A DNA stretch of 64,000 bases from an uncultured delta proteobacterium (GCA_963788205.1 CAWBGG010000007.1:378732-442731), one strand, 5' to 3'. Counted from the stretch's first letter, positions 18,296 through 62,576 are shown. Notes: generated from the letters alone by a model not told the origin. Numbers and translations: made by a program.

Positions 18296-18345
18296 GCGCA
18301 AGGGCTATGATCGAAAAGGAAAGCCTACTTGGGAAGCCTATTTGA

Positions 18346-20385: not shown

Positions 20386-20412
20386 GCGTCAATAGCTGGT
20401 AGAATAATTGCG

Positions 20413-24278: not shown

Positions 24279-25160
24279 CTACTTCTTTCCCGCCGCGCGG
24301 CGGCGTTCACCGCCGGAGCGCGCGGCTCGCGCATGCGCCTTGGCCGCGGACTGCTGCTCGGCCTGCTGCGTTTCGGGCGCGGCCACGCCGCGCTTGTCGA
24401 GCGAAGCCTTCAGCGCGGCCATCAGATCGATTACCTGGCCGCGGCGCGGCTCGGCCGGCGTGCCGACGGCCTGCTGGCCCGCGACCTTCTGCTGCGCTGC
24501 TTCGAGCACCCGTTCGCGATAGCTGTCGCGATATTGGGAAGGGTCGAACTTGTCGTGGGTCAGCTCGTCGATCAGCCGTTTCGCCAAGGCCAGCTCCGCT
24601 TCCTTGGCCGCCTCGTTCGCAGCGCGATCGACTTCCTCGACCGGCTTGACCTCGTCGGCATAGTAGACCGTATGGAGCATCAGGCCCTTGGCATAGGGGC
24701 GGATCAGGATCAGATGTTCCTTGCCGCGCAGCGTGTATTTCCCAAGCGCAACACGCTTGCTCGACATCATCGCGTCGCAGAGCAGGCGGTAGGCTTTGCC
24801 CGCTCCCGGCTCGGCGCCCAGATAGTACGAATCCTCGAAGTAGATCGGATCGACCGCCGACAGCGGTACGAACTCGGTTATTTCGATCGCGTGGTCGTCG
24901 CGCGCTTCGAGGTTCTTGAGTTCCTCATCGGTGAAGGTGACGTAGCGGCCCTTCTCGATCTCGTAGCCCCGGACCAGCTCGCTGCGATCGATGATCGCGT
25001 CGTCCACGGGGCAGTAGATTTTCTGCTGGATACGGCTTAGGTCCTTGGCATGCAGCAGGTTGAAGCTCACCGACTTGGCAGAGGTCGCGCCGAACAACCT
25101 GACCGGGATGGAAACCAGACCGAAGGAAATATTGCCACTGCTGACGGGCCGTGCTGCCAT
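24279..25160 (-). CDS. ku: Ku protein (NHEJ)
   Basis: ISFGLVSIPVRLF N-terminus and Ku core, with a basic C-terminal tail. Confidence 0.85.
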   Translation of the reverse strand: MAARPVSSGNISFGLVSIPVRLFGATSAKSVSFNLLHAKDLSRIQQKIYCPVDDAIIDRSELVRGYEIEKGRYVTFTDEELKNLEARDDHAIEITEFVPLSAVDPIYFEDSYYLGAEPGAGKAYRLLCDAMMSSKRVALGKYTLRGKEHLILIRPYAKGLMLHTVYYADEVKPVEEVDRAANEAAKEAELALAKRLIDELTHDKFDPSQYRDSYRERVLEAAQQKVAGQQAVGTPAEPRRGQVIDLMAALKASLDKRGVAAPETQQAEQQSAAKAHARAARSGGERRRAAGKK

Positions 25161-25284: not shown

Positions 25285-27900
25285 ATGCCGCTGGAGAAGT
25301 ATCGGCAGAAGCGAATGCCGGAGCGAACGCCCGAGCCCTTCGGCAAGGTGGGCGACACCGCGCGACCGTCCGCGGGCTCGATGTTCGTGATTCAAAAGCA
25401 TGCCGCCCGCCGGCTTCACTATGACTTCCGCCTCGAGATGGAGGGCGTATTGCGCTCGTGGGCGGTGCCAAAAGGACCCTCGCTCCGCAGCGCCGACAAG
25501 CGGCTGGCCGTGATGGTCGAGGACCATCCGATTGAATACGGCAATTTCGAGGGGACGATTCCGCAGGGCAATTACGGGGCGGGCGCCGTGATCGTGTGGG
25601 ACCGCGGCGAGTATCGGCCGATCGACCTGCAAGGTGACGCCGCCGCAGCCGTGCGGGCCGGCAAGCTCGACTTCGAGCTGCACGGCTTCAAGCTGCGCGG
25701 CGCCTACACGCTGGTGCGGACGCGCGGGATGCCGAATCGGCGCCAATCGGACCGCAAGGAACAGTGGTTGCTGATCAAGAAGCGCGACGAGTACGCCTCC
25801 GACGACGATGTCCTGGTCACCCATCCGCGCTCGGTGCTCTCCGGCCTAACTATAGAAAAGCTTCGCGACGCAGACGCGGCTGGCGAACGAATCGCGGGCG
25901 GGCTCGCGCAACTCAAGGCGCGGCGGATCGAGGGCGCGTTGGCGGCCAAGGCGTTTCCCCTGATGCTCGCGAAGCTCGCCGACAATCCGTTTGACGGCGA
26001 GGGCTGGCTGTTCGAGCTCAAGTACGACGGGGTGCGGGCGCTGGCGATTCGCGACGGCGAGCACGCGCGCATCTTCGCCCGCAGCGGGATCGAGATCACC
26101 ACGCAATATCCCGAAGTCGCACTCGCGCTCGACAAGCTGCCGTTCAGCCGCCTGGTGCTCGACGGCGAAATCGTCGCCTTCGCGGACGACGGCCGGCCGA
26201 GCTTTCAGCTCCTTCAGCGCCGAATCGGCGCACACGAGCGAAACGATATCGAGCGGCTGAGCCTTTCGATTCCGGCCTGTTATCAGGTTTTCGACCTGCT
26301 CGCTTTCGCGGAGTTCGATCTGCGTCCGCTCCCACTCGAGCAGCGCAAAGCGTTCTTGGCGCAGGTCGTGAAAGGCGATGGCCCGCTGCGCTATTGCGAT
26401 CACTACAGCGCGCGTGGACGGGATTTCTTTCAGGCCGTAGCGCAGGCGGGACTGGAGGGGATGGTCGCCAAGCGCCGCGACTCGATCTACCGGGGCACGC
26501 GCGGCGATGACTGGCGCAAGATAAAGTGCCCGCGACTCGGCCGTTTTGTGATCGGGGGATGGACCGATCCGGCTGGCGCACGGTCGCATTTCGGGGCGCT
26601 GCTGCTCGGCGCGTTCGAGCCCGACGGCAGTCTGCGCTTCCTCTCGCGCGTCGGCACCGGCTTCGACCAGCGCAAACTGCGCGAGATTCATGAACTGCTG
26701 GAGCGCCGCAAGCGCGATCGCTCGCCGTTTCGCCGCCCGGCGCAGGCCGAACCACGCGTGCCGGCCGGCGCGCATTTCTGCGAAGCCGAGCTGGTATGCG
26801 AGGTGCAGTTCGGCGAATGGACCGACGAGGGCGGCCTGCGCCACCCGAGCTTCCGCAGCCTGGTCGAGGGCGCGAACCCGCGCGAGTGTGTCTACGCGGG
26901 TCCGGTGCGCGGCGATTCCAGGCCGCCCGTCCACGACGATCCGCCAGCGCCAGCGAGTGTCGATTCGGGAGGCCAGAGCGTGAAGAAGCCCCAGCGCGCA
27001 TTTACGATTACCAACGCCGGCAAGGTCTTCTGGCCGGCGGAGGGTTACACCAAGGGCGACCTGATCGTGTACTACCAGGCGATCGCGCCCTGGATGCTCC
27101 CCTATCTGAAAGACCGGCCGGTGGTGCTGACCCGCTATCCCGACGGGATCGAGGGCAAAAGTTTCTTTCAGAAAGACGCGCCGTCGTTCGCCCCCGCGTG
27201 GATCCGAACCGAATCGATATACTCGCCCGATACCGCTCGTGACATCGCCTACTTCGTGCTGGAGAGTGCCGAGGCGATCGGCTACATGGCCAACCTGGGC
27301 GCGATTCCGATTCATATCTGGTCCTCGCGCGTGCCCCATCTGGAGCGCCCCGACTGGCTGCTGTTCGATATCGATCCCAAGGGTTCGACGACCCGGCGTG
27401 CGGTGATTGTCGCCCAGGAAGTTGGCGCGGTGCTGCGCTCCGTAGGACTCCGGCCCTATCTGAAAACCTCGGGCCAGCGCGGGCTTCACGTCGTGGTCGG
27501 ACTCGAGCCCAGGTACACCTACGAGCAGGCACGGATGTTCTCCGAGATGGTGGCCGGGCTGGTCGTCAGCCGAATCCCAAGCGACGCGACGCTGGTGCGC
27601 GATACTCGCGCCCGGGGCGGCCGAGTCTATATCGACTATCTTCAGCTTGGCCAGGGCAAGACTATCGCGGCTCCGTTCGCGGCCCGTCCGGCGCCGGGCG
27701 CGCCGGTATCGGCGCCGCTCAAATGGGCCGAATTGAGCGAGGATCTCGACCCCGTGGCGTTCAATATCAAGACGATGCCCAAGCGGATGGCGCGCCTCAA
27801 ACGCGACCCGTTTATCGGCGCGCTCGAAGACCTGCAGGCCATCGAGCCGGCCCTGCCGTGCCTGGAGCGCGAAATTCGCGGTACCGCGCCGAGCAATTGA
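25285..27900 (+). CDS. ligD: ATP-dependent DNA ligase LigD (phosphoesterase-ligase-polymerase)
   Basis: N-terminal PE domain (VIQKHAARRLHYDFRLE). Ligase adenylation motif ELKYDGVRAL. C-terminal LigD polymerase/primase domain. Divergent from ku. Confidence 0.85.
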   Translation: MPLEKYRQKRMPERTPEPFGKVGDTARPSAGSMFVIQKHAARRLHYDFRLEMEGVLRSWAVPKGPSLRSADKRLAVMVEDHPIEYGNFEGTIPQGNYGAGAVIVWDRGEYRPIDLQGDAAAAVRAGKLDFELHGFKLRGAYTLVRTRGMPNRRQSDRKEQWLLIKKRDEYASDDDVLVTHPRSVLSGLTIEKLRDADAAGERIAGGLAQLKARRIEGALAAKAFPLMLAKLADNPFDGEGWLFELKYDGVRALAIRDGEHARIFARSGIEITTQYPEVALALDKLPFSRLVLDGEIVAFADDGRPSFQLLQRRIGAHERNDIERLSLSIPACYQVFDLLAFAEFDLRPLPLEQRKAFLAQVVKGDGPLRYCDHYSARGRDFFQAVAQAGLEGMVAKRRDSIYRGTRGDDWRKIKCPRLGRFVIGGWTDPAGARSHFGALLLGAFEPDGSLRFLSRVGTGFDQRKLREIHELLERRKRDRSPFRRPAQAEPRVPAGAHFCEAELVCEVQFGEWTDEGGLRHPSFRSLVEGANPRECVYAGPVRGDSRPPVHDDPPAPASVDSGGQSVKKPQRAFTITNAGKVFWPAEGYTKGDLIVYYQAIAPWMLPYLKDRPVVLTRYPDGIEGKSFFQKDAPSFAPAWIRTESIYSPDTARDIAYFVLESAEAIGYMANLGAIPIHIWSSRVPHLERPDWLLFDIDPKGSTTRRAVIVAQEVGAVLRSVGLRPYLKTSGQRGLHVVVGLEPRYTYEQARMFSEMVAGLVVSRIPSDATLVRDTRARGGRVYIDYLQLGQGKTIAAPFAARPAPGAPVSAPLKWAELSEDLDPVAFNIKTMPKRMARLKRDPFIGALEDLQAIEPALPCLEREIRGTAPSN

Positions 27901-32603: not shown

Positions 32604-35354
32604 TTGTATCAGTTTAGTGACAGCCTGTTTCATTCCGCGAGCAGTCGGACCACATTACGAGCCGCGACCGCGGCTGTCGCCTGTCTTCTGATGGCCGTGC
32701 AGGCGCTGGCCCAGAACGCCCCCCAAAACATGCCACTGATTGGCAACCATCCTGCCGAGGTCGAGAGCTGGCGGCAGGCGGGATGGGCCGAGCCGGATAC
32801 GCAGCTTGTGATGCGCGTCCACTTCGCGATCCGCAACCGGGCCGCGCTGGACGAGTTTTTGTCCGAGCAACAGAACCCAAAATCCCCGGCCTATCGGCAT
32901 TGGCTGACGCCGAGCCAGTTCACGCAAAGCTTCGGGCCCAACGAGGCCGACCTTGACGCGGTCTCCGGCTGGCTCACCGCCCAGGGTTTCAGGGTCCGTG
33001 CACGCAGCCAGGCGGCGCGCTATCTCGAGTTCAGCGGACCGGAATGGCTGGTCGAGCGCGGTTTCCACATCGCGATCGGAACCTTTGCCGGCGGCCGCAC
33101 CTATGGCAACCTCACCGATCCCCTGATTCCGGCGCAATTCACCGAAGTGATCGAGTCGATAGAGGGTCTCGACAACTTTCGGCACTCGAAGCCGCTGCTC
33201 CATCGGCGGTCGGACAGCCAGTCGCCGGTTGCGGCGACGATCGCGCCGGCTCCCGACCTGAGGCTGGCGGAATGGCTCGAGCAGATCCCGCTGCACGAAG
33301 ATCCGTCGCTACCCGCCCTCGCGCCGGTCCCCGAAACGATTCTCGGCCACGTCAGGGCGTTTGCGCCCAGCGACATCCAGACCTTCTATGACGAGACTCC
33401 CCTGCTGAGCGGCGGAATCAACGGGCGTGGCGGCGACTGTATCGCGGTAGTTGGAGACTCGGACTACCTCGACGCGGCGGTGAGCGATTTCGACACGCAG
33501 TTCGGGCTGGCAGCGTCGAGCATCACGCGCGAAATCGTCGGCAGCAATCCGGGCATCAATGGCGACGAAGCTGAAGCGCTGATCGACCTGGAATGGTCGC
33601 ACGCGGTCGCTCCAGGCGCGCCCCAGAGGTTCTACCTGGGCGACATCGTCGAGGGGATTTCCACCGCCGTCAGCGACAACGCATGCAGTGCGATCAACAT
33701 CAGCTTCGGCTTCTGCGGCGCGAGCGATGGCTTCTACACTTCCATGGACTCGATCTTTGCGCAGGCCGCGGCGCAAGGACAGTCGGTGTTCGTGTCGTCG
33801 GGTGATCAAGGGGCCGCCGGACTGGTGGTCAATTCGGCGGGCACCGAATGCGTGGCCGGCACCAGCCGCAACGTGAATGAGATCGCCGCCAGCCCCAACG
33901 TCACGGGGGTGGGCGGAACTCAATTCAGTCCGAGCTACAACGCCGCCGGCAACGATTCGGGCAATGCGCCCGAAAGCGTGTGGGACGAATCGTTCGGCGC
34001 GACTGGCGGCGGCGCTAGCGCGGTGTTCAGCAAGCCCTCTTTCCAGAGCGGTTTGGGCGTGCCTGCCGACGGACACAGGGACGTGCCCGACGTCGCGATG
34101 ATCGCCAGCCCCGATCAGCCCGGCGTATTCCTGGGCGACGATTCAAATGGCAGCGCAGTGATCGATTGCTGCTGGGGAGGCACCAGTCTGGGCGCGCCGC
34201 TGTGGTCCGGAATTTCGCGGTTGCTCTCGCAGGCGAATGGCAAACGGGTCGGCAATATCGACTCGAAAGTCTACCGCATGGTTGCATCGCAAGGCGCTGC
34301 GGCGGGCCTCCGTGACGTTACGGCCGGCATCAACAGCTTTAACAGTGTGTTGGGTTTTCTGGCCGGAAACGGCTACAGCCAGGCGACGGGATTGGGAACC
34401 GTAGATTTGGCGACATTTGTCCCCGCGTTCGTGGGCTCTGCGGCTTCGACGCCAACACCGACACCGACCGGGACGCCGACTGCCACGCCGACTCGAACGC
34501 CGACGCCGACTCCGACGCGAACCGCAACGCCGGCACCAACGCCATCCGCGACACCAACCGGCGCAGCAACCCCGACTCCAAGCCCATCGCCGACTGCAAT
34601 TCCGACCGCGCGGCCAACGCCGAGCCCGTCGGCTTCTCCGACGCCAACGGCAATTCCCACAGCGCGGCCAACGCCGAGCCCGTCGCCTTCCCCGACGCCA
34701 ACGGCAATTCCTACAGCGCGGCCAACGCCAAGCCCGACGCCAACTACAATCCCTACGGCACGCCCGACGCCAACCGCAATCCCCACGGCGCGGCCAACGC
34801 TGAGCCCGTCGGCTTCCCCGACGCCAACGGCAATTCCTACAACGCGGCCGACGCCAACTGCAATCCCGACAGTGCGGCCGACGCCGACACCGACTCCGGC
34901 GAGAACCCCTACTCCCACGCCAATTCGGCCGACACCTTCGCCGACTTCGTCACCGGCGCCCTCAGCCACGCCCACACCGCCGGCCAGTTGCAATTCGCAG
35001 GTGTTCAACGCCGTGAGCACGCTGCCGGTTACCGTCAGCCCCAACTCCCCGACCTACGTCGTTGCCACAGCGGGCAATCAGTTCACGACCTCCAGGTGCA
35101 ACGCGAATTGGGTCGTCGTTACCCGTTGCCTGGTCCAGTTCACTAATGGCAGCTTCTTCAATGCTCTAGTTATGGGTACTAACTCGGGTTTGAATCCGCT
35201 GAGTATCCCGCCTTACACGAGTACGTATCTCGAATGGTCATACAGCTTCAACCTGGCAGGCGGGACGCGGATAACCAGTCCGGTTTGCCCCGTAACCTCG
35301 ACACAGCGCGGCACCGCCACCGGCAGTGCGAGCATGATTGCGTTACCGGGGTGA
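32604..35354 (+). CDS. secreted S53 (sedolisin/kumamolisin-like) peptidase with Pro/Thr/Ala-rich linker and C-terminal domain
   Basis: Signal peptide. Pro-kumamolisin activation-like prodomain. [12 protein letters not shown] serine motif. About 120 aa of [16 protein letters not shown] repeats. A Cys-containing C-terminal domain. Confidence 0.8.
34440..34900. repeat. imperfect tandem DNA repeats of about 60 bp inside the peptidase linker
   Basis: Repeating unit ccgacgccaacggcaattcc(c/t)acagcgcggccaacgccgagcccgtcg(g/c)cttc. It encodes the PT-rich linker. Confidence 0.75.
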
Positions 35355-37763: not shown

Positions 37764-37968
37764 TGTCGTGCCGGTTTAGGACGAAAGAAAAACTAGAAGT
37801 TATCAGAGAGTCATTCCCGAATCGACAGCAGCGGAACCCGGGCAGCATGCGGTTCGCCTACTGCGCCAATGCGGATTCAGGAACAAATGCATTCCTTGCT
37901 CCGCGAGGCCTGCGCTAGTCTGAACGGACGATGCATCCGGCGACGCCGGGTTGCGACGATTCTGGGAT

Positions 37969-38799
37969 ATGGCTGATCGCACTCCGATTCCGGTTGGCAA
38001 ATACGCCAAGACCGCCAAGGGCTACGAGATCCACTACCACGAGGCCGGCGGCGGTGGCGATCCGGTGGTGTTCATCCACGGCGCCGGTCCCGGCGCCAGC
38101 GGTTACAGTAACTTCAAGCGGAACTATCCGTTTTTCGCCGAGCAGGGCTTGCGCGCGATCGTGCCCGACCTGCCGGGCTACGGGCTGTCCTCCAAGCCCG
38201 CGGACGTGGCCTACACGCTCGACTTCTTCGTCGAGACCCTGCGCGGATTTCTCGACGCGATCGGCGTGCGGCGATGCGTTCCGTTGGGCAATTCGCTCGG
38301 CGGCGCGATCGCGATCAAGTACACGCTCGACTATCCCGACTCGGTGAGCAAGCTCATCCTGATGGCGCCGGGCGGCCTCGAGGAGCTGCCGACCTACCTG
38401 CAGATGGAGGGCATCCAGAACATGCTCAGGGTCCATTCCGCGGGCCCAATCAACGCAGAAGGCATCCGCAACATCATGTCCAAGCAGCTCTACGACCCCG
38501 CTCTGCTCACCGAAGAGCTGCTCGCAGAGCGCGCGGGGATTTCCGTGACCCAGCCGAGCACCGTGCTCTCCACGATGCGGGTGCCGAACATGGCCGCGCA
38601 ACTTGGTTCCATCCGATGCCCGGTGCTGGGCTTCTGGGGAATCAACGACAAGTTCAATCCGGTCAGTGGCGCGACCAAAATTGTCGAAGGATGTCCAAAC
38701 GCGCGCGTTACGCTGCTCAACCGCTGCGGTCACTGGGTGATGGTCGAGCATCGCGACTTCTTCAACCGCGCGTGCATTGACTTCCTGCGCAACGGCTGA
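37969..38799 (+). CDS. alpha/beta hydrolase, meta-cleavage product (C-C bond) hydrolase family (MhpC/BphD-like)
   Basis: GNSLGG nucleophile elbow and the alpha/beta-hydrolase pattern. Lies upstream of the hydratase gene. Confidence 0.75.
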   Translation: MADRTPIPVGKYAKTAKGYEIHYHEAGGGGDPVVFIHGAGPGASGYSNFKRNYPFFAEQGLRAIVPDLPGYGLSSKPADVAYTLDFFVETLRGFLDAIGVRRCVPLGNSLGGAIAIKYTLDYPDSVSKLILMAPGGLEELPTYLQMEGIQNMLRVHSAGPINAEGIRNIMSKQLYDPALLTEELLAERAGISVTQPSTVLSTMRVPNMAAQLGSIRCPVLGFWGINDKFNPVSGATKIVEGCPNARVTLLNRCGHWVMVEHRDFFNRACIDFLRNG

Positions 38800-38811
38800 T
38801 TCGCTCGGGCG

Positions 38812-39603
38812 ATGGATGACAGCGCCGTCAGCGCTCTGGCCGACGAGCTGTACTCGGCCTTGCGCGCGCGCTCGACCGTGGCTCCGCTCAGCGAACGCCA
38901 TCCCGACATCACGATCGCCGATGCCTATCGCATCTCGCTCCGGATGCTTGAGCGGCGCACCGCCGACGGCGAGCGCGTGATCGGCAAGAAAATCGGCGTG
39001 ACCAGCCGCGCGGTGCAGGAGATGCTCGACGTACATCAGCCCGACTTCGGCTTCCTGACCGACGCGATGCGCTATCCCGACGGCGCGACGATAAGCATCC
39101 GCCGGGCCGGGTTGATCCAGCCGCGCGCGGAAGGCGAGATCGCTTTCATCCTGAGCCATGACCTCGCCGGATCGAACGTCACCGCCGCCGACGTGCTCGA
39201 CGCCGCCGAAGCGGTGATGCCTTGCTTCGAGATCGTCGACTCGCGGATCGCGAACTGGAAGATCAAGATCGAAGACACCGTGGCCGACAACGCTTCGTGC
39301 GGCGTCTTCGTGCTCGGCCAGGCGCGCGTCGATCCCAAGGGACTCGACCTGGCCTCGGTGCGGCTCGAAATGTTTCGCAACGGAGAGCCGGTCGCTTCGG
39401 GACTCGGCTCGGCGGTGCAGGGGCATCCGGCGGCGGCGGTCGCATGGCTCGCCAACACGCTGGGCAAGTTCGGTATCCCGTTCCGAAAGGGCGAGATCAT
39501 TCTTTCCGGTTCCCTGGTGCCGCTGATCCCGGCGTCGGCCGGCGATAGCTTCGAACTGTCTATCGGCGGCATCGGCGGAGCCTCTGTCCGATTCGCCGAT
39601 TGA
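38812..39603 (+). CDS. mhpD: 2-keto-4-pentenoate (2-oxopent-4-enoate) hydratase
   Basis: MhpD/BphH/HpcG-family pattern over the full 263 aa. Confidence 0.8.
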   Translation: MDDSAVSALADELYSALRARSTVAPLSERHPDITIADAYRISLRMLERRTADGERVIGKKIGVTSRAVQEMLDVHQPDFGFLTDAMRYPDGATISIRRAGLIQPRAEGEIAFILSHDLAGSNVTAADVLDAAEAVMPCFEIVDSRIANWKIKIEDTVADNASCGVFVLGQARVDPKGLDLASVRLEMFRNGEPVASGLGSAVQGHPAAAVAWLANTLGKFGIPFRKGEIILSGSLVPLIPASAGDSFELSIGGIGGASVRFAD

Positions 39604-39850
39604 CTAGTACGCTATTAGTTCAAAATGGAAATTCCGGCTTAATGGCGCAATTGCCGTCCAGCGATGCGACACTGACGCAAGGGGGTGGATTTTGCGCTAT
39701 GGCTGCTGTACTTCCCCAGCAACGCCATTCCAAAGGCACCCGCGAGTGCGAAAAGAAGATAACTCCGTCTCAACGCTGCCTCCCCATATTGTATCCGGGA
39801 TTTCCGTTTTGACACCTCGGATTAAGATGATAATTAGTACAGGTTCCCCT

Positions 39851-40801
39851 ATGAAAGTTACCATGGACCGAAAATGTTGGGGTTTCACGCCTCCCGGCGT
39901 CAAAGCATGCTGCAGGCAGTGGTTTTGCCTATTAGTTGTCGCAGGGTTTCTAACTGGCTGTGCGTCAACCGGCACGTCAGCGTATCGCAACCCTAACTTT
40001 GACCAGAGCAAATCTTACCGGGTAGCAGTTTTCCCATTCCGCGATGCGCCTCAAGCTCCCGGAAGTGGCGATGCGCTGTCAACCATATTTGAAGGTACGC
40101 TTTTGGCAAGTGGTGGAAGGTTCGAACTGGTTGACCGTGGAGAAATAGAGCGGATTTTGCGCGAGCACCATGCGGGTGTCAATGGGATGGGGGCCGGTGT
40201 CGGCGGGGATCGTCCGGATTATGTACAAGAATTTGAGGATCCGGTTGGAGTCGGTAAACTACTCCGGGTTGACCTTGTTGTTGTGGGTACGGTAACAAAA
40301 TGGCAGGACTTGCCAGGCAGACCCTCGGTCGCAGCTTTAGTCAAAGCGGTTAGCGTAGAAAAAGGGGTTGTTGTTTGGTCTCTGGATCAGTTTACGGATG
40401 ATGCGCCTCATAACCCCGTGGATTTTGTGGCTTCCAAGCTTTGCCGCCAAATGATCGCCACGTTGGTGGGAAAGAATCCGATCGCCTTGTGGCATACGAA
40501 ATCCGAAGGCGCGGAGCTGGAGCTTGGTTCAACAAACACGCTGGTGTATCGTAACCCCAACTTTGACCAAAGCAAATCGTACCGGGTAGCAGTTTTCCCA
40601 TTTCACGACGCGCCTCAAGCCCCCGGAAGTGGAGATAGGCTGTCAAGCATATTTGAAAGTACACTTTTGGCCAGCAGTGGAAACTTCGAAGTCGTTGAGC
40701 GTGAAGAAACAGAGCGGAGTTTGCGCGAGCGCCATCCGGATGTCAATGGGATGGGGGGCCGGTGCCGGAGGGGATCATCCGGATTATCGACAAGAAGTTG
40801 A
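39851..40801 (+). CDS. CsgG/LpoB-like lipoprotein, copy 1, fused in frame to a signal-less partial copy 2 that then frameshifts
   Basis: Lipobox FLTGCAS. Core YRNPNFDQSKSYRVAVFPF(R/H)DAPQAPGSG...IFE.TLLAS.G.FE.V.R.E.ER.LRE. After copy 1 the frame runs through ...IALWHTKSEGAELELGSTNTLVYRNPNFDQ... into a second core with no stop, then goes out of frame at a run of 6 g (5 g in copies 1 and 3). Confidence 0.6.
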   Translation: MKVTMDRKCWGFTPPGVKACCRQWFCLLVVAGFLTGCASTGTSAYRNPNFDQSKSYRVAVFPFRDAPQAPGSGDALSTIFEGTLLASGGRFELVDRGEIERILREHHAGVNGMGAGVGGDRPDYVQEFEDPVGVGKLLRVDLVVVGTVTKWQDLPGRPSVAALVKAVSVEKGVVVWSLDQFTDDAPHNPVDFVASKLCRQMIATLVGKNPIALWHTKSEGAELELGSTNTLVYRNPNFDQSKSYRVAVFPFHDAPQAPGSGDRLSSIFESTLLASSGNFEVVEREETERSLRERHPDVNGMGGRCRRGSSGLSTRS

Positions 40802-41048
40802 GGATCCAGTTGCTGTCGGTAAACTTCTCCGGGTTGACCTTGTTATCGTGGGCACGGTAACAAACTGGACTCAACGTCAGGCATTCGGATCCTCGGTCGG
40901 AGCTTCTGTCAAAGCGGTTAGTGTAGAAAAAGGGGTCGTTGTGTGGTCTTTGGTTAAGTCTACGGAACACCATTACGCGATCAACGTCGTGGCTCGCAAG
41001 CTTTGCAGCCAAATGATCGCGGCATTGGTGGGTAAGAATCCGAATTAG
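40629..41048 (+). pseudogene. out-of-frame C-terminal remainder of lipoprotein copy 2
   Basis: This frame encodes GAGGDHPDYRQEVEDPVAVGKLLRVDLVIVGTVTNW...ARKLCSQMIAALVGKNPN, homologous to the C-terminal halves of copies 1 and 3. Confidence 0.6.
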
Positions 41049-41060
41049 AACTGTTCCCCT

Positions 41061-41705
41061 ATGGAGGCTACCATGCACCGAAAGTGTTGGGGCTTCGGGC
41101 CTGCCAGCGTCAGAGCATTCTGCAAGCAGTGTCTTTGCCTATTGGTAATCACAGGGTTTCTAACTGGCTGTGCGTCAACCGGCACGTTGGTGTATCGCAA
41201 CCCTAACTTTGACCAAAGCAAATCTTACCGGGTAGCAGTTTTCCCATTCCACGATGCGCCTCAATCCCCCGGAAGTGGAAATGCGCTATCAACCATATTT
41301 GAAAGTACACTTTTGGCGAGCGGTGGAAAGTTCGAAGTGGTTGAGCGTGGAGAAATAGAACGGATTTTGCGTGAGCGCCATCCGGATGTCAATGGGATGG
41401 GGGCCAGTGTCGGCAGGGATTCTGGACAAGAATTCGAGGATCCGGTTGCGGTCGGTAAGCTTCTCCGGGTTGACCTTGTTATTGTGGGCACGGTAACAAA
41501 CTGGACTCAAGGTGTGCAAGCAGGCTGGGCTACTTTTTCCACTACCGCGGTCGGAGCTTCTGTCAAAGCGGTTAGTGTGGAAAAAGGGGTTATTGTTTGG
41601 TCTTTGGATCAGTCTGCACAGCCTGCTTGGGTCCTTACCGGGCCGGTGGATGCTGTGGCTCGCAAGCTTTGCCGCCAAATGGTCGCGACATTTGTGGGAG
41701 AGTAA
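41061..41705 (+). CDS. CsgG/LpoB-like lipoprotein, copy 3 (intact)
   Basis: 214 aa. Same leader (ttcccctatg...ccatg), lipobox and core as copy 1. Upstream sequence is also duplicated. Confidence 0.7.
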   Translation: MEATMHRKCWGFGPASVRAFCKQCLCLLVITGFLTGCASTGTLVYRNPNFDQSKSYRVAVFPFHDAPQSPGSGNALSTIFESTLLASGGKFEVVERGEIERILRERHPDVNGMGASVGRDSGQEFEDPVAVGKLLRVDLVIVGTVTNWTQGVQAGWATFSTTAVGASVKAVSVEKGVIVWSLDQSAQPAWVLTGPVDAVARKLCRQMVATFVGE

Positions 41706-41889
41706 TTGTCCAATGTTGTGAATCGGCCGGTGGACCGAGGCGAACTCCGTCGACGAACTTCACGCCCGCACGGACCAGAGACAAGAGGGTGGCGCCGTCG
41801 AGGCGCCGCCAGCGCTGCTGGGCCATGTCGAGCAGCTTGAACGCCATCAGCAGTGCCTTGGTTCTTGAATCGGCGCGCCAGGCGGCTCG

Positions 41890-41957
41890 GTGAATTTTTA
41901 CGTGAGCGACGACGACAGCACGCCGACGTGGGGCAGCGCCGATTACCGGCACCAGTA
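41890..41957 (+). pseudogene. relic 3-prime fragment of a kinase paralog
   Basis: tttttacgtgagcgacgacgacagcacgccgacgtggggcagcgccgattaccggcaccagtag encodes FYVSDDDSTPTWGSADYRHQ*. It is nearly identical to the last 20 codons of the next gene (FYVSDDGSTLTWGSNSYRRQ*), and has the same stop-to-start junction. Confidence 0.65.
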
Positions 41958-41973
41958 GCGGGAGAGGAACGTC

Positions 41974-44163
41974 GTGCTTTCAGCAGGCTTCGTACTGGCC
42001 GGCCGCTACCGCGTGATTCGCTTGCTCGGCGGCGGCGGAATGAAGCGCGTCTATCTCGCCGAAGACGCGGGGCAAGCCGCACTGCGGCGCGTGGTAGTCG
42101 AGCCCGCGAACGATCCTGGCGAGCCGCAAGCGCGAGAACAGGCATCCGCAGGGCTCCAACTGAAAGCACAAGCGCTGGAGCCCCTTCGCAACGGGCACCT
42201 CGCCCAGTTGCTCGAGTTCCTTACTGAAGACGGCCGCCTCTACCTAATCCGCGAGTACGTAGAAGGCGAATCGCTAGAAGAGCGAATCAGGAGGATGCCG
42301 AAGACCGGTTTGGCGCCTGAGTTCGTAATCGGCCTCGCGCTCCAGATTCTGGACGGCCTGGTTGTTCTGCATGGACTCGATCCGCCGTTCATCTATCGCA
42401 ACCTCAAGCCCTCCAACGTGATCATCGGACCGGAGGGAGTTGCGAAGCTGGTCGATTTCGGCCTTGCGCTCGACCTCGCGCCGCCATCTCTGGCCACAAA
42501 AATCGGCGCGCGGCCATACTCCGCGCCCGAACAGTACGAGCGTCGCGACGGGCCACAGAGCGATCTCTACGCGCTCGGCGCGATCATGCACCACGCGCTG
42601 TCGGGCCGCGATCCCGTCAAATCGGCGCCGTTTCGGTTTCAGCCGCTCGAGCGGCTCCGTCCGGACCTGAATCCCGATCTCTGTAAGCTTGTTGATCGCT
42701 CGCTGGCCTTCAACGTAAACGAGCGCGTCCCGTCCGCCCAGTTCTTCAAGGATTCTCTCCTCGCCATCAAGGCAGGCCAGCCGCTGCCGGCTTTCGCCCC
42801 GGCGCAGGCGCCTGCGTCGCCGGTCGCGGCGCAGCCTGGCGCAGCGGCGCCCGCGCGACCGCGCTCGCGTCGCGCGCCCTGCCCGCACTGCCAACGACGA
42901 ATCCCGCGCGACGCGCGCACCTGCCCTTACTGCGCGCGCAACGTCGCTACGGGCGAGATAGGCGTAGGCGCGTCCTCATCAGGGCGAAAGATCCCCGCGG
43001 CTGCGATAGGCATTGCCGCCGTCGCGGCTGCCGTGGTCGCAGGCGTGTTCATCCTCAGGCCTGATCATGCGTCCAGTCCAGCGGTGCGGCAAATTGCCGC
43101 TCCCGCTTCGGTCCCTTCGCATTCGGCGGCTGAGGCCGAAGCGGAAGCGCATCGGCTCGCGCTCGCGCGGCAGTTCGACGCCGACATGGCGGCGTTTCGC
43201 GGCGCCGAGCCGTCCAGCCACTCACGAGAGAGACTCCGCCGGACGATCATAGCCGAGGGTGTTAACATGAATCCGCCGCCGGGTCTGCCCCAGGACGCAC
43301 TGCAACATCTCGATCGTGGCGATGCCGATCTCAAGGCGCGCAACTATGCCGAGGCGGCCGGCGAGTTTCGCGAGGCGCTGGACGAGGCGCCATGGCTGGC
43401 GCAGGCCTATCGGGGTCTCGCCCGGGCACGCGAATCAGCCGGCGATCTGGACGGCGAGATCGAAGCCTCCAACGACTATTTGCTCGCCTCACCGCAGGCG
43501 TCCGATGCGCTGGAGGTGAAGGCGCATGCCGCAGCGTTGGGCCAGCGAATCTTCGCAAGTCAGAGCGACGCCGCCTTGCGCAACGAGATCCAGGCCCTAC
43601 AAGTCAAGCAGCAGGAGGAGGAGGCGGAGCAGGCGCGAATTCGGGCGCAGGAGCAGGCCGAGGAAGAGGCCCGTCAAGAGCAGCAGCGGCAGAACCAGCG
43701 CCAGCAGGCCGAGCAGCAGCGCCAGCAGGTCGAGCGGGAGCAACGGTGCCGGGAAAACTTCGTCGGAAGGTGGGGAGAGTACGACGTCGAGTGCTGCGGC
43801 GAAAGACGTTCGGGCGCGACCTCTTTTTTACCGCCCGGCTCCGGCGGCAGACCGATTCAGGGGCTGGGAGGAGTATATCAGATCGACCTCGCCGGCAAGC
43901 AGCTACAAGTTTATCGGGTGCTTGGGGTAAAGTGCAGCCGTGCCTGCGAATCGACCGGTCTGTATCAAACCAGCGAACTCGTGTTCGACGGTACCCTCAC
44001 CAATCAACGCACGAATTGGAGCGGCAACTGCAGCTTCACAGCTACCGGCGAGATTCATCACTTCGACCCTTTTGAGGCAGTGCCCATCGACTCGGTGGAC
44101 TTTTACGTCAGCGACGACGGTAGCACGCTGACGTGGGGCAGCAACAGTTACCGGCGCCAGTAG
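41974..44163 (+). CDS. transmembrane Ser/Thr kinase-like protein, predicted pseudokinase, with zinc ribbon, TPR-like and coiled-coil periplasmic region
   Basis: GGGGMKRVY is present. The beta-3 Lys is lost (RRVVVEP). The catalytic loop reads IYRNLKPSN (Asp to Asn). DFG and APE are present. CPHC...CPYC ribbon, then a TM segment, then a TPR-like segment, a Q/E/R-rich coiled coil and a Cys-containing C-terminal domain. GTG start. Confidence 0.75.
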   Translation: MLSAGFVLAGRYRVIRLLGGGGMKRVYLAEDAGQAALRRVVVEPANDPGEPQAREQASAGLQLKAQALEPLRNGHLAQLLEFLTEDGRLYLIREYVEGESLEERIRRMPKTGLAPEFVIGLALQILDGLVVLHGLDPPFIYRNLKPSNVIIGPEGVAKLVDFGLALDLAPPSLATKIGARPYSAPEQYERRDGPQSDLYALGAIMHHALSGRDPVKSAPFRFQPLERLRPDLNPDLCKLVDRSLAFNVNERVPSAQFFKDSLLAIKAGQPLPAFAPAQAPASPVAAQPGAAAPARPRSRRAPCPHCQRRIPRDARTCPYCARNVATGEIGVGASSSGRKIPAAAIGIAAVAAAVVAGVFILRPDHASSPAVRQIAAPASVPSHSAAEAEAEAHRLALARQFDADMAAFRGAEPSSHSRERLRRTIIAEGVNMNPPPGLPQDALQHLDRGDADLKARNYAEAAGEFREALDEAPWLAQAYRGLARARESAGDLDGEIEASNDYLLASPQASDALEVKAHAAALGQRIFASQSDAALRNEIQALQVKQQEEEAEQARIRAQEQAEEEARQEQQRQNQRQQAEQQRQQVEREQRCRENFVGRWGEYDVECCGERRSGATSFLPPGSGGRPIQGLGGVYQIDLAGKQLQVYRVLGVKCSRACESTGLYQTSELVFDGTLTNQRTNWSGNCSFTATGEIHHFDPFEAVPIDSVDFYVSDDGSTLTWGSNSYRRQ

Positions 44164-44174
44164 GGAAGAATCGC

Positions 44175-46106
44175 ATGCTTGCAGCAGGCGTCGTATTGGC
44201 CGGTCGATACCGTGTCGTGCGTCCGCTCGGCGGCGGCGGGATGAAGCAGGTCTATCTCGTAGAAGACACGCGGCTCGCCAATCGCCCCTGCGCGCTGGCC
44301 GAGATGATCGACAGCTTCTCCGACCCCAAGGAAGCCCAGGCCACCGCCGCGGCTTTCCAGCGCGAAGCCGAAATGCTCGCAAGCCTGCGTCATGATCAAA
44401 TCGTCGTCGTTCACGACCGCTTCAGCGAGCAGAACCGCCACTACCTGGTGATGGAGTACGTCGAGGGCGACACGCTGGAGCAGAAGCTTGCGGCTGCTCC
44501 GGGCAATCGGCTGGACGAGAAGCTTATCACCGATGTCGCGCTGCAAATAACCGACGCGTTAGAATATCTGCACCGCCATAATCCGCCGGTCGTTTACCGC
44601 GATCTCAAGCCGGCCAACGTGATGCTCACCCCGGATGGGCGGGTGAAGCTGATCGATTTCGGCATCGCGCGGCTGTTCGTGCCCAAGAAGACCGCAACGA
44701 TGGTTGGGACCCAAGGCTACGCGCCGCCGGAGCAGTACGAGGGCAAGGCCGAGCCGCGGAGCGACCTCTATGCGCTCGGCGCGACGATGCACCATCTGCT
44801 CACGGGCCGCGATCCTGGCACCCAAGTGCCGTTCAGCTTTCCGCCGGTCGGTGGCCTCCGGCCGGACTGTGATTCGCGCATCGCCGACCTGATCGACGAG
44901 TCGCTCAGATACAACCTGGCCGATCGGATCACGAGCGCCTCAGAGTTCCGCAGGCGGCTAGAGAACATCAAATCACCGTCGGGCGGGTTCAGGCCGGCTG
45001 CGGCAGCATCCACGCCGACGCCGTCGGTTTCCGCTCCGCCGTTCGGCGGAGCGGTCACGGTGACGACGCTGATTCAGGCCAGACAGTGCCCGCGCTGCAC
45101 GCGCGGCGTTCCGGTCAACGCGGTCGTATGCCCCTATTGCAGCGCGCGACTGGGGCACACTGCGGTCTCGGCCGGGAAGCGCCGCCGATGGCCGCTCGCT
45201 GTTGCCTCGCTGGCCGTTGCCTTCGGAGCGGTGTTCGCCGGAGCCTATTACTACGAGAATATCTACCTGCCGCAACCGCGGCCGGCCGCCGGGCAGCAAG
45301 CGCACGCGGCACCCGAAGCGCAACCGACGGCTGCCCGGCGTGAAGCGGCGCCGGAACAGCCGCGTCCCGAGAACGCCGCCATCGCGGAGCGGAATGCAAA
45401 TCTCAGTGCGCAACTCGCCCAGGACGTAACTGCGCTCCAGCGCGCCAAGGCAGGCTCTGCGAAGGAGAAGTGGTTGCGCGAGGATGTGATCTCAGCGGCG
45501 CTGCAGATGAGTCCGCCGCCGGCAGTGCCCGACGACGCCCGGAAGCTTATCGATCAAGGAGAGGCGGCCCTGAAGGTCGCAAGCACGGCGGGCGAATATC
45601 GCAAGGCGGCGGTGGAGTTGAATCGGGCGTTGAAGCTCGCCCCGTGGTATGCGCCCGGCTACACAGCGCTGGCGGACGCGGAGGAGGGGGCGAACGATCT
45701 CGATGCGGCGGCTTCGAGTCTAAGGGCATATCTGATTGCCGCGCCGACCGCCGCGGACAGCGCGAGCGTCAGCGCGCGCATCTCGGAGCTTGAGCAACAG
45801 GCGGTCCAGCAGCGGCAGCAGGCGGCGGAACAGCGCAAGCTTGCCGAACTCAAGAAGCAGCAAGAGCAGAAGCAAGCGGAGATCGACAAGGAGCGGCAAG
45901 AAGAAAAGCAGCCTCGGAACGAAGAGCAGACACAAGACAAATACAAGGCTGCCGCGGAGGCTGATTGCCGAAGGGAGCACGCTGCGGTGAACGCATATTT
46001 GTCCTGCCTACAACGATGGCCTCATGACCTCGATCGCTGTACTGACGCACCTCCCCTTTTTCACGACTGCGAGTATCTCTATGAGAAATATGGTGAGCGG
46101 CTTTAA
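44175..46106 (+). CDS. transmembrane Ser/Thr kinase paralog (beta-3 Lys replaced) with zinc ribbon, TPR-like and coiled-coil periplasmic region
   Basis: GGGGMKQVY, CALAEM (Lys to Ala), VYRDLKPAN, DFG, APE. CPRC...CPYC ribbon and a TM segment. Overlaps the upstream gene by about 30 nt. Close paralog of the kinase at 20413. Confidence 0.75.
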   Translation: MLAAGVVLAGRYRVVRPLGGGGMKQVYLVEDTRLANRPCALAEMIDSFSDPKEAQATAAAFQREAEMLASLRHDQIVVVHDRFSEQNRHYLVMEYVEGDTLEQKLAAAPGNRLDEKLITDVALQITDALEYLHRHNPPVVYRDLKPANVMLTPDGRVKLIDFGIARLFVPKKTATMVGTQGYAPPEQYEGKAEPRSDLYALGATMHHLLTGRDPGTQVPFSFPPVGGLRPDCDSRIADLIDESLRYNLADRITSASEFRRRLENIKSPSGGFRPAAAASTPTPSVSAPPFGGAVTVTTLIQARQCPRCTRGVPVNAVVCPYCSARLGHTAVSAGKRRRWPLAVASLAVAFGAVFAGAYYYENIYLPQPRPAAGQQAHAAPEAQPTAARREAAPEQPRPENAAIAERNANLSAQLAQDVTALQRAKAGSAKEKWLREDVISAALQMSPPPAVPDDARKLIDQGEAALKVASTAGEYRKAAVELNRALKLAPWYAPGYTALADAEEGANDLDAAASSLRAYLIAAPTAADSASVSARISELEQQAVQQRQQAAEQRKLAELKKQQEQKQAEIDKERQEEKQPRNEEQTQDKYKAAAEADCRREHAAVNAYLSCLQRWPHDLDRCTDAPPLFHDCEYLYEKYGERL

Positions 46107-46358
46107 CGGCAACACGAGGAACAAGGATTCTCAACCGGCGAAATTCGCGTTCAAGCAGCGAACCCTTGCCGTCCCATTCCCGTCCCAATCAGCGGTACAC
46201 GGTTATTTCCGGTTAAAATCAGGTGCGCGCTGAACTCTGAGCAGATGCGATCGGCTACCGGCGTTGCCGGCGGGCCGGCTCTTTACGGCTTGGAACAATT
46301 CTGGGAAAAAACCATTAGTCAATCATTCGCAGATCTGCCGTCCGGCGGAGATCGGGAC

Positions 46359-47282
46359 ATGAAGCAGGACACTAAGAAGGTCAAATGCGCTCTAATCGGT
46401 TCGGGCAACATCGGCACCGACCTGCTCTACAAGCTCAAGCGCAGCGAGCTGCTCGATCCGGTATGGATGGTCGGGATCGAGCCGGCCTCCGAAGGGTTGG
46501 CGCGCGCCCGCGCGATGGGACTCAAAACCACCGACAAGGGCGTTGACGCGATGCTGCCCCACGTGAAGGAAGACGGCGTCCAGATCGCGTTCGATGCAAC
46601 TTCCGCGTACGTGCATCCGGAGAACTCGCGCAAGCTCAACGCGCTGGGCGTGATGATGCTCGACCTCACTCCCGCTGCGATCGGTCCCTATTGCGTGCCG
46701 CCGGTGAACCTGAAGGGGCACGTCGGCAAGCGCGAGATGAACGTCAACCTGGTCACCTGCGGCGGACAGGCGACGATCCCGATGGTCTACGCGGTCTCGC
46801 GCGTACAGAAGGTCACCTATGCCGAGATAATCGCGACCGTGGCGTCGCGGTCGGTCGGGCCCGGCACCCGCAAGAATATCGACGAGTTCACCCGCACCAC
46901 CGCCGGTGCGGTTGAAAAGGTCGGCGCGGCGAACAAGGGCAAGGCAATCGTAATAATCAATCCCGCCGAGCCTCCGATCATCATGCGCGACACCGTCTAC
47001 TGCACGACCGAGGACCAGCCCAACCGCGAGGCGCTGATGGACTCCGCGCTCGAGATGATCCGCGAAGTGCAGAAGTATGTCCCCGGCTACCGGCTCAAGA
47101 ACGGACCCGTGATCGACGGCAATCGGATCTCGATGTTCATGGAAGTCGAGGGCCTGGGCGACTATCTGCCGAAGTACGCCGGCAACCTCGACATCATGAC
47201 CGCCGCGGCCGCCCGCGCCGCCGAGATGTTCGCTGAAGAGATCCTGAGCGGCAGCTTGGTGCTCGAACCCGTCGCGGCTTAA
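46359..47282 (+). CDS. mhpF: acetaldehyde dehydrogenase (acetylating)
   Basis: [17 protein letters not shown]-terminus and full-length DmpF/MhpF/BphJ pattern. Confidence 0.85.
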
Positions 47283-47378: not shown

Positions 47379-48407
47379 ATGTACTTGCGCGGGAAGAAAA
47401 TCATCCTGCACGACATGACGTTGCGCGACGGGATGCATCCGAAGCGCCATCAGATAACGCTCGATCAGATGAGATCGATCGCTGTCGGGCTCGACGAGGC
47501 GGGCGTGCCGCTGATCGAAGTCACTCACGGCGACGGCCTGGGTGGCGCCTCGATCAACTACGGCTTCCCGCGCCATTCGGATCAGGAGTATTTCGCCGCG
47601 GTGATTCCGCTCCTCAAGCACGCCAAAGTCTCCGCGCTTTTGGTGCCGGGAATCGGCACGGTCGATCACCTGAGAATGGCGCGCGAAGCGGGCGTGTCCA
47701 CAATCCGGGTCGCCACTCACTGCACCGAGGCCGATGTCTCCGAACAGCATATCGGCCTGGCGCGCGAGCTGAAGATGGATACGGTGGGCTTCCTGATGAT
47801 GGCGCACATGGCGGAGCCTGACAAAATCCTCGAGCAGGCAATGCTGATGGAATCCTACGGCGCCAACTGCATCTATGTCACCGACTCGGCGGGCTACATG
47901 CTGCCCGACCATGTGCGCGCCCGGTTCGGCCCGTTGCGCGAGAAGCTCAAGCCGGAGACCGAGCTTGGCTTCCACGGCCATCACAACCTCGCGATGGGAG
48001 TCGCCAATTCGCTTGCGGCGATCGAATGCGGAGCAACCCGTATCGACGCAGCCGCCGCCGGCCTCGGCGCCGGCGCCGGCAACACGCCGATGGAGGTGTT
48101 CGTTGCGGTCTGCGAGCGGATGGGGATCGAAACCGGCGTCAACGTATTCAAGATCGCCGACGTGGCCGAAGACCTGGTCGTGCCGATCATGGACACGCCC
48201 GTGCGCATCGATCGCGACGCGCTGACGCTCGGCTACGCCGGCGTCTACTCGACGTTCCTGCTGTTCGCCAAGCGGGCCGAGGCCAAGTATCGCGTTCCGG
48301 CGCGGGAGATTCTGATGGAGCTGGGACGGCGGCGCATGATCGGCGGCCAGGAAGACATGATAGAAGACACCGCGCTCACGATGGCGCGTGAGCGCGGCCT
48401 GCTGTAA
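47379..48407 (+). CDS. mhpE: 4-hydroxy-2-oxovalerate aldolase
   Basis: [23 protein letters not shown] and DSAGYMLP motifs of DmpG/MhpE/BphI. Confidence 0.85.
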
Positions 48408-60757: not shown

Positions 60758-61107
60758 CAGTGCAAGGAGGCAGTCTCAGGCAGTCTCAGCCGGTCGCAAC
60801 GTGGCGAAGCAGCACGCTCGTGCTCTTGCAACCACGCCTCGACTTCACGCTCAAGTCCAAGATTCTCGCCTTTGCCGCTTGGTGGTCGGGAAGGCCAGCG
60901 CAAGGGCCGCCGCAGAGAGCCCGCGCAGCCGTGGCCGCCGTTGCTCCGCGCTCTTACGGGCGCACGTCGGGGACGTGGCGGTGCTGGTAGAGGCCGTCTG
61001 GAGCCTCAAGGCCGGCTTCCCGAAAGAGGCCGCAGCATGAGCGGCCAAGACCGCATCCGCGAGATAGCCGACTCCGGGCGGGCCGGCGCGGTTGGGAAAT
61101 GGCGCCA

Positions 61108-61932: not shown

Positions 61933-61950
61933 AGGAAGGTGGCTGAACCC

Positions 61951-62244
61951 CTATTTTTCCTTGAGGCGCGGATCGTCGGTCGCAATGCACGTTGCCATTT
62001 CGTGGGCCAAGTTGTCGTAGGCATCTAATTTGGCGAATTTGCCCTGCTCCGCAGGCCAGCGAATTGGTTTCCGAGCTTCTGCCCTCGCGGCTTCGCATTG
62101 TGCCGCAGTATCGTAGCTCGACTCGACCTGCCACTGACTTAGGGGCGCTTCTGCGTCCACTCGGGGGTCTTCCGTGTTCTGCGCGGGCGGGATTACCAGG
62201 TACCAGCCTGTGAGCGCGAGCGCGGCGGCGTGGACGAGTCGCAT
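61951..62244 (-). CDS. small secreted protein, paralog A
   Basis: 97 aa, signal-like AAALALTGWYLVIPP. Conserved LSQW...YDTAAQCEAARA...IATDDPRLKEK. Its start lies 1 nt after the stop of paralog B. Confidence 0.55.
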   Translation of the reverse strand: MRLVHAAALALTGWYLVIPPAQNTEDPRVDAEAPLSQWQVESSYDTAAQCEAARAEARKPIRWPAEQGKFAKLDAYDNLAHEMATCIATDDPRLKEK

Positions 62245-62245
62245 C

Positions 62246-62548: not shown

Positions 62549-62576
62549 GTGATTCTTTACTCCGCCGGAGCCAACG

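Follow-up and report, generated by a model that had tools for sequence, protein, structure and literature searches.

A 64 kb stretch of DNA from an uncultured delta proteobacterium (GCA_963788205.1 CAWBGG010000007.1:378732-442731), referred to as a whole as the window, carries a meta-cleavage lower-pathway operon in which the genes for the hydratase and the acetylating acetaldehyde dehydrogenase (mhpF) are separated by 6755 nt; the interval studied here is the one between these two genes, 39604-46358. Gene order was established from a listing of open reading frames (ORFs) together with Pfam scans, and all features are collected in Table 1. The four lower-pathway enzymes (hydrolase, hydratase, dehydrogenase and the aldolase encoded by mhpE) are all present and intact in their usual order and orientation, whilst the interval contains three lipoprotein paralogs (lipo1-lipo3), the genes for two kinases (kin1 and kin2) and, before these, a relic of 76 nt that stems from the 3' end of a kinase gene, all on the + strand and hence in the direction of the operon. 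An earlier reading of this DNA, made from the sequence alone, had placed the end of the hydratase at 39603 and the start of the dehydrogenase at 46359 and had listed the same intervening genes: the boundaries are borne out by the ORFs, the Pfam matches and the alignment to the nearest relative (L001, see below), which sets the true start of mhpF at 46359 and not at the upstream ATG (46245), and the gene content is borne out by the ORFs and the repeats.

Table 1. Features of the interval between the hydratase and dehydrogenase genes, of the flanking operon and of two kin1-type genes at other metagenomic loci (window coordinates unless another locus is named).
Feature	Position	Strand	Match or remark
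Meta-cleavage-product hydrolase (alpha/beta hydrolase), first gene of the operon	37951..38799	+	Pfam Abhydrolase_1 9.6e-26
2-keto-4-pentenoate hydratase-type gene (MhpD/BphH-like), left flank of insertion	38812..39603	+	Pfam FAA_hydrolase
Left copy of possible 10-12 nt target duplication (GCTATTAGTTCAA)	39611..39623		aligns to L001 CCTGTCAGGCAA
193-nt segment between 18-nt inverted repeat arms (TCAAAATGGAAATTCCGG / CCGGGATTTCCGTTTTGA)	39620..39812		extreme left edge of insert
lipo1, small lipoprotein, lipobox LTGC, PelC/GNA1162/CsgG-fold family	39851..~40492	+	weak Pfam CsgG
lipo2, mature-domain copy without own start codon or signal peptide, in-frame fusion to lipo1	~40529..41048	+	
lipo3, intact lipoprotein paralog	41061..41705	+	
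G+C-rich spacer, 177 nt, low-GC block to relic	41706..41882		no open frame
76-nt relic, 3' end of kin1-like gene (encodes ...VNFYVSDDDSTPTWGSADYRHQ*)	41883..41958	+	84% nt identity to 44088-44163
kin1, membrane-spanning pseudokinase	41974..44163	+	Pfam Pkinase 9e-25
kin2, membrane-spanning Ser/Thr kinase, WNK-like lysine placement	44175 (or GTG 44133)..46106	+	Pfam Pkinase 1e-40
Right non-coding end of insert	46107..46310		no copy elsewhere
Right copy of possible target duplication (ACCATTAGTCAA)	46311..46322		aligns to L001 CCTGTCAGGCAA
Acetylating acetaldehyde dehydrogenase (MhpF/DmpF-like), right flank	46359..47282	+	Pfam AcetDehyd-dimer 9.5e-61
4-hydroxy-2-oxovalerate aldolase (MhpE/DmpG-like)	47379..48407	+	Pfam HMGL-like + DmpG_comm
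kin1-type protein in L082	L082 10001-12172		
kin1-type protein in L089	L089 9768-11939		

In a scan of one genome per species, 80 loci turned out to have a related hydratase. L001, the nearest relative, is a soil metagenome-assembled genome (MAG) that is likewise labelled 'uncultured delta proteobacterium' and is collinear with the window over 32.5-55.7 kb at 77-91% nucleotide identity, with synteny on both sides of the intervening block. The alignment breaks at window position 39609 (L001 10798) and restarts at 46377 (L001 10852), leaving ~53 nt in L001 between the two points; the second-closest genome, L002, exhibits the same empty site of ~53 nt. Across the whole set the dehydrogenase match starts 18-239 nt past the hydratase match in 79 of the 80 loci, the remaining locus having no dehydrogenase, in agreement with the claim of the sequence-only reading that these operon genes normally adjoin. 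Given the empty sites in L001 and L002 and the short gap in 79/80 loci, the 6.7-kb block between hydratase and dehydrogenase is a derived, lineage-specific insertion in the operon spacer, as that reading had proposed. The finding that it had named as speaking against an insertion, namely the same genes at this site in relatives with uniform composition, was looked for and did not emerge, an outcome that favours insertion. Identity values imply the tree ((window, L001), L002), so that a single gain on the window branch suffices.

The reverse polarity, an ancestral block that was precisely deleted in the relatives, is highly improbable: it needs at least two independent clean deletions (L001 and L002) plus absence from 77 more distant loci, it has to accommodate a lipoprotein block that is wholly un-ameliorated (0.50 G+C at third codon positions, GC3), and the L001 spacer aligns without scars to the joined flanks of the window. 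We found no direct support for it, and what can be said in its favour is that there are just two close relatives, both at a synonymous divergence (dS) of about 0.3-0.5 from the window. A chimeric join in the metagenome-assembled contig is also barely credible. The source is indeed a metagenomic contig, and a homopolymer frameshift in lipo2 hints at some sequencing error; such an artefact would nevertheless take two wrong joins that happen to leave both sides collinear with L001, and the independent Logan assembly of run SRR28062071 contains a contig of 2019 nt (L088) that is 100% identical to 37953-39971 and spans the left junction, which argues against a chimeric join. This contig ends at the start of the lipoprotein repeat.

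The genes on either side of the insert compare with L001 as follows: 94% amino acid identity and a ratio of nonsynonymous to synonymous divergence (dN/dS, omega) of 0.08 for the hydrolase, 89% and 0.26 for the hydratase, 94% and 0.11 for mhpF, and 95% and 0.06 for mhpE. Judged from these values purifying selection acts on mhpF and mhpE, both of which are intact, and no decay is visible 3' of the insert, with the caveat that much of the divergence from L001 may predate the insertion.

The insert falls into two markedly distinct compositional classes, which meet at about 41706. G+C content is 50-54% over 39.5-41.7 kb versus a window mean of 63.4% (sd 2.9%, 1-kb windows), and in the sliding analysis of G+C and tetranucleotides that the sequence-only reading had put forward as a check, 39.5-42 kb is the sole strong tetranucleotide outlier of the 64 kb (z up to 6.1, 2-kb windows). 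GC3 is 0.50 in the lipoprotein genes (lipo1 0.505), 0.74-0.75 in kin1 and kin2, and 0.78-0.86 in the operon genes, the native kinases of the window, RecA and LigD. Thus the low G+C noted in that reading holds for the left 2.1 kb, which is the lipoprotein block, but not for the kinase part, which at 64-65% G+C is near-native; the segment between lipo3 and kin1 (41706-41973) has 64% G+C and the one between kin2 and mhpF (46107-46358) has 56%. Since GC3 is 0.50 as compared to about 0.83, a foreign origin of the lipoprotein block is well supported by composition. Elsewhere in the window, a second and milder G+C dip (57-58%) lies at 61001-63000, with an ORF on the - strand (61108-61932) that gives no Pfam match, and a strong local anomaly in GC- and AT-skew at 34.25-35.25 kb stems from the long Pro/Thr/Ser-rich repetitive tail of a pro-kumamolisin-type peptidase (32604-35354).

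The lipoprotein copies are ~210 residues long and share 69-82% amino acid identity over their main aligned stretches (69% for lipo1 versus lipo3) and 74-88% DNA identity over most repeat families, with dN/dS values of 0.42-0.66 among the three. In case of lipo2 the frame is broken by a single frameshift, one extra G in a G-run near 40750 (40750-40758): when one G is removed, the full frame is restored to the stop at 41048. lipo2 may be a recent pseudogene, or the extra base may be a homopolymer sequencing error in a two-domain lipo1-lipo2 lipoprotein. The family is rare, with 18 homologues among 5.8 billion proteins; all 18 members have a lipoprotein signal peptide and the lipobox Cys is invariant, most showing LxGC. 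An AlphaFold model of lipo3, built on the family alignment, reached a mean predicted local distance difference test score (pLDDT) of 80.7, and its best matches in the PDB are to PelC, an outer-membrane lipoprotein that forms rings in the export of Pel polysaccharide (template modelling score to the target 0.70-0.82, 16-18% identity, Foldseek E down to 6e-10), followed by GNA1162, CsgG, the TolB N-domain and LpoB. Both hallmarks of the PelC/CsgG superfamily, the lipobox and, as predicted by the model, the alpha/beta fold, are thus found in the lipoproteins. No pel, csg or flagellar genes lie near them, and pel and csg genes are absent both from the window and from the surroundings of the homologues in L081 and L084-L087. 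Elsewhere the homologues occur singly, and their surroundings vary: the one in L085 adjoins a DDE transposase, the one in L086 lies among fragments of an AbiE toxin-antitoxin system, those in L081 and L086 are near an S1/P1 nuclease gene, and the L081 homologue is also lower in G+C than its neighbours. An origin of the lipoprotein from phage or plasmid was considered and dropped, as the phage and plasmid collections gave no match.

To the right of the lipoprotein block, no convincing homology was found in the spacer 5' of the kinase relic, and the frame of the relic is closed by a stop immediately 5' of it. The relic also aligns to the 3' ends of kin1 homologues in two other loci, L082 and L089, and when taken together with the first 90 nt of kin1 it aligns to the junction between the 3' end of the kin1-type gene and the 5' end of the kin2-type gene in both, so that the segment must derive from, or have undergone recombination in, a tandem kinase array. 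kin1 and kin2 themselves, spaced by 11 nt, have a common architecture: an N-terminal kinase fold, a CxxC...CxxC zinc ribbon, one hydrophobic transmembrane helix, a TPR-like stretch and a Q/E-rich coil, with kin1 ending in a Cys-rich domain of ~130 residues that matches no family. The sequence-only reading had described them as two kinase paralogs; two kinases they are, but at 37% amino acid identity they are not recent duplicates, and they are better described as a conserved pair of pseudokinase and kinase.

Only two full-length relatives of kin1 were found, P0020 in L082 (56% identity) and a 723-aa protein in L089 and L090 (63%). In L082 and in L089/L090 alike, a kinase gene starts 13-15 nt after the kin1-type gene, and its product matches kin2 at 62-65% identity over the first 325-367 residues; window 41998-45151 aligns as a single block to L089 9792-12917 (70.9% over 3199 nt), with a block alignment to L082 too. 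The kept adjacency and the single-block alignment show that kin1 and kin2 belong together as a conserved unit. In other metagenomic loci the pair has the kind of neighbours that mobile or defence islands usually have: L082 contains a phage-type integrase and Imm_superinfect genes, and L089 contains Patatin, a PIN toxin, SSB and ArdC, with L090 carrying the same genes as L089 and ending before the SSB/ArdC region; the surroundings of the L083 kinase array described below are of this sort too. With the best homologue anywhere only 56-63% identical, and with homologous pairs in mobile-element contexts, a foreign origin of the kinase pair is plausible. The horizontal acquisition proposed in the sequence-only reading is therefore well founded for the lipoprotein block and plausible for the kinases, whilst the description of the cargo as mobile is one that we infer. 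At the loci examined, PelC-like lipoproteins were not seen beside kinase pairs nor kinases beside lipoprotein homologues; as the two are never neighbours in either set of homologues, the notion of lipoproteins and kinases as one functional module was discarded.

Active Hanks-type kinases are expected to possess a beta3 Lys, a catalytic-loop Asp and the Asp of DFG. kin1 does not have this set: its catalytic loop reads YRN instead of HRD, and the beta3 Lys is missing. The loop reads YGN in P0020 and YHN in the L089 protein (L089_k723), and none of the three has the beta3 lysine; the change of the catalytic Asp to Asn in all three kin1-type proteins indicates that they are conserved pseudokinases. 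kin2 falls short by the beta3 Lys only: YRD and DFG are kept, the beta3 lysine position is occupied by Ala (CALAEM), and a Lys is found in the glycine-loop strand, beta2 (GGGGMK). In eukaryotic WNK ('with no lysine') kinases, the Lys is placed in the glycine-loop strand. The likeness of kin2 to this arrangement is a lead, not a result; a literature search found no bacterial precedent for a WNK-like lysine arrangement. Amongst 223 retrieved kinase homologues, a crude motif classification finds the combination of beta2 Lys, beta3 Ala and catalytic Asp in 158 and leaves 47 unclassifiable, and the kin2-type family is large and comes mostly from Binataceae-labelled MAGs. Each of the three kin1-type genes is followed within 11-15 nt by a kin2-type gene, which suggests that their products form a pseudokinase/kinase receptor pair. 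PADLOC matches to PD-T4-6 and others (E down to 1e-61) lie for the most part in the generic kinase domain and have no diagnostic value, and the membrane-spanning receptor architecture of the pair is presumably unlike that of defence kinases such as PD-T4-6.

The window has kinases of its own outside the insert. A native signalling cluster at 14461-22764 comprises a vWA protein, a zinc-ribbon FHA protein, a kinase-FHA protein, a kinase-like protein fused to a PP2C phosphatase and a 783-aa kinase with a large C-terminal region; the native kinases at 16541-18295 and 20413-22764 have the canonical AVKEM/AIKEM motif and no glycine-loop lysine. On a metagenomic contig, L083, the homologues of kin2 belong to a tandem array of four kinases, of which three end in an FGE-sulfatase (C-type-lectin) domain; bAvd and a reverse transcriptase come next, and the whole region (569-12871) looks like a diversity-generating retroelement with kinases as targets. 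The window has no homologue of reverse transcriptase or Avd and, by Pfam, no FGE-sulfatase (C-type-lectin) domain, and the differences between relic and kin1 are not adenine-specific (by eye); hence a diversity-generating retroelement in the window was rejected.

At the junctions, the L001 spacer reads CTAGTAGCCTGTCAGGCAACGATCCGCGATCTGC...; the left flank of the window runs on as CTAGTACGCTATTAGTTCAA before departing from L001, and the right flank restarts at ACCATTAGTCAATCATTCGCAGATCTGCC, the window aligning from 46311 rightward to the L001 spacer 5' of mhpF. GCTATTAGTTCAA on the left and ACCATTAGT-CAA on the right map to one single copy in L001, and because both flanks contain a counterpart of L001 CCTGTCAGGCAA, an imperfect target duplication of 10-12 nt is suggested. 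The search for short direct repeats that the sequence-only reading had proposed thus did return a repeat, albeit an imperfect one that is not above chance when taken alone (~20% of random 30-nt pairs score equally), and a target duplication is only weakly supported. The possibility that the left spacer is a degenerate copy of the region upstream of mhpF was rejected, since 8/500 shuffles were as good and the match became non-significant once long gaps were allowed. An 18-nt inverted repeat at the left edge is real: its arms, 39620-39637 and 39795-39812, are complementary at 16/18 positions (two matches in 0/100 shuffles). The second arm lies 157 nt away from the first and not at the right end of the insert, where no partner was found. 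A metagenome scan with the 18-nt arm returned at least 120 single matches, an estimated chance number, most of which do not go past the seed, the four blastn hits covering 23-27 nt in three cases and 53 nt, with 81% identity, in the fourth. One locus, L159, has the arm paired at 1.65 kb, enclosing hydrolase genes and no transposase. For these reasons the repeat was not accepted as the end of an insertion sequence or of a miniature inverted-repeat transposable element (MITE). Copies of the non-coding ends of the insert are found neither in the window nor in the fetched loci, the fold of the right non-coding end is not significant (z -0.3), and no Rfam family occurs in the window.

We consider the block to be a lineage-specific composite islet of ~6.69 kb (roughly 39620-46310) that entered the hydratase-dehydrogenase spacer after the split from the nearest sequenced relative, an explanation to which we assign a probability of roughly 0.85; the host is probably a Binatia-type bacterium. 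The interval is in this sense an ordinary small genomic islet with moderately interesting cargo. It unites two unrelated sets: three tandem lipoprotein genes of the PelC/CsgG fold, whose donor had a much lower G+C, and a conserved membrane-spanning pseudokinase-kinase pair with the stump of a further kin1-like gene in front. This stump 5' of the pair implies that the pair was excised from a tandem kinase array, or underwent recombination inside one, such as those on mobile elements of related bacteria. Entry may have taken place through an illegitimate or transposition-like event at a staggered break, which would account for both the possible 10-12 nt duplication and the missing recombinase; one candidate is end-joining by the Ku and LigD proteins encoded in the window, possibly through break-capture. 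Translations of the window were read as Ku at 24279-25160 (- strand) and a multidomain LigD at 25285-27900 (+ strand).

Several observations weigh against this explanation. No integrase, transposase or recombinase domain was found among the larger ORFs of the window, and tblastn of the window with the L082 integrase fragment and the L083 reverse transcriptase gave no match, so that the statement of the sequence-only reading that no such gene is recognisable in the window stands. The window has no tRNA or tmRNA, and the insert has neither att-like repeats nor matching terminal inverted repeats at its two ends; hence the mobility of the islet is inferred. The direct repeat at the junctions is weak, exact look-ups of mhpF and mhpE returned no second contig over the right junction, and the data fit both a joint and a stepwise arrival of the two cargo sets. 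A last reservation is that the simple scans for promoters and terminators may not suit the phylum; these predicted neither a + strand terminator between kin2 and mhpF nor a sigma-70-like promoter in 46107-46358. Because all inserted genes are co-oriented with the operon and no terminator came up, transcription probably still reaches mhpF and mhpE by read-through, with the cargo co-expressed with the catabolic genes; read-through from upstream would be the simplest route to mhpF/mhpE expression.

Named element types fit poorly. An integrase-mediated island, an integrative and conjugative element (ICE) or a prophage was rejected as no recombinase was found among the larger ORFs of the window and there is no tRNA/tmRNA or att site, and an integron cassette array was rejected in the absence of an integrase and of attC-like folds, the spacers after lipo3 and kin2 folding no better than shuffles (z -1.4 and -0.3). 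An intact insertion sequence or transposon was likewise rejected, as every ORF of the insert encodes a lipoprotein or a kinase, leaving no transposase gene within, and the termini do not match. A decayed form of such an element, be it a transposon, a block bounded by insertion sequences or the product of MITE-assisted transposition, deserves more attention: a DDE staggered cut would have produced a duplication of 8-12 nt, and the transposase and the right end would have been lost later. The imperfect direct repeat at both junctions with both copies aligning to one L001 sequence, the inverted repeat that begins exactly at the left edge and the DDE transposase next to the lipoprotein homologue in L085 are all consistent with this, but the larger ORFs of the window include no transposase, the second repeat arm is misplaced with no match at the right end, the direct repeat does not exceed chance, and the matches to the arm are of chance number and mostly seed-only, with the L159 pair holding hydrolase genes; we therefore regard a transposon remnant as rather unlikely.

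A two-step insertion merits tentative consideration and is the alternative that we take most seriously, even though we would not expect it to prove correct: the kinase array would have arrived first, and the low-GC lipoprotein array later in or next to the first kinase gene, of which the 3' relic is what was left. The marked difference in composition between the two sides of ~41706, the position of the relic directly to the right of the lipoprotein block and the fact that lipoproteins and kinases are never neighbours elsewhere are in keeping with this order of events. On the other side, nothing of the 5' portion of the truncated kinase was found left of the lipoprotein genes, and 177 nt of unrelated G+C-rich sequence lie between lipo3 and the relic; moreover, the composite could equally have been built in a donor.

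The composite islet in the operon spacer is of value as a clean and dated case, with an empty site for comparison, of accessory genes that lie inside a catabolic operon with no gene broken, and may serve studies of the tolerance of operons to insertions and of the use of a host promoter by inserted cargo. Of greater interest than the insertion itself is the cargo, with its very rare PelC-fold lipoproteins and its conserved pseudokinase/kinase pair. Should kin2-type enzymes prove active, they would show that bacteria arrived independently at the 'with no lysine' solution. A bolder proposal, which we think unlikely and offer as speculation, is that kin1/kin2 represent an undescribed horizontally mobile module, a receptor pseudokinase plus a WNK-like kinase, that travels on integrative/conjugative elements of Binatia-like bacteria, with retroelements diversifying the sensor ends of some members; in the present case the module and ring-forming PelC-like lipoproteins would both have become part of the transcription unit of an aromatic-degradation operon, such that envelope sensing would be co-expressed with catabolism.

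Comparison with known systems places these elements as follows. The window resembles the mhp/dmp/bph lower-pathway clusters in all four enzymes and in their order and orientation, but the genes of the relatives are contiguous: the hydratase-dehydrogenase gap is 6755 nt as compared to 18-239 nt, and the adjacency that characterises these clusters is broken. The lipoproteins are like PelC, GNA1162, CsgG and LpoB, all small lipoproteins that face the periplasm, in their lipobox (LTGC) and predicted fold, yet differ from PelC-type lipoproteins in an identity of 16-18%, in a glycine-rich insert of variable length and in having no pel or csg neighbours. kin1 and kin2 share the kinase fold of Hanks-type Ser/Thr kinases, kin2 also the catalytic Asp and DFG, whereas the beta3 Ala sets kin2 apart and kin1 additionally has lost the catalytic Asp; the Lys in the glycine-loop strand makes kin2 similar to the eukaryotic WNK kinases, although common descent is unsupported. 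A further comparison is with kinase arrays with C-type-lectin ends beside diversity-generating retroelements, a subject to which PMC7517822 appears to relate: such arrays are matched by the kin2 homologues of L083, whilst the window differs in having no reverse transcriptase, Avd or lectin domain. With genomic islets, small acquired insertions that carry no mobility genes of their own, the insert finally has in common an empty site, a composition that is partly atypical, accessory cargo and a possible short flanking direct repeat; it differs from them in occupying the spacer of an operon and not a tRNA site or intergenic hotspot, and in the two compositional classes of which it is made.

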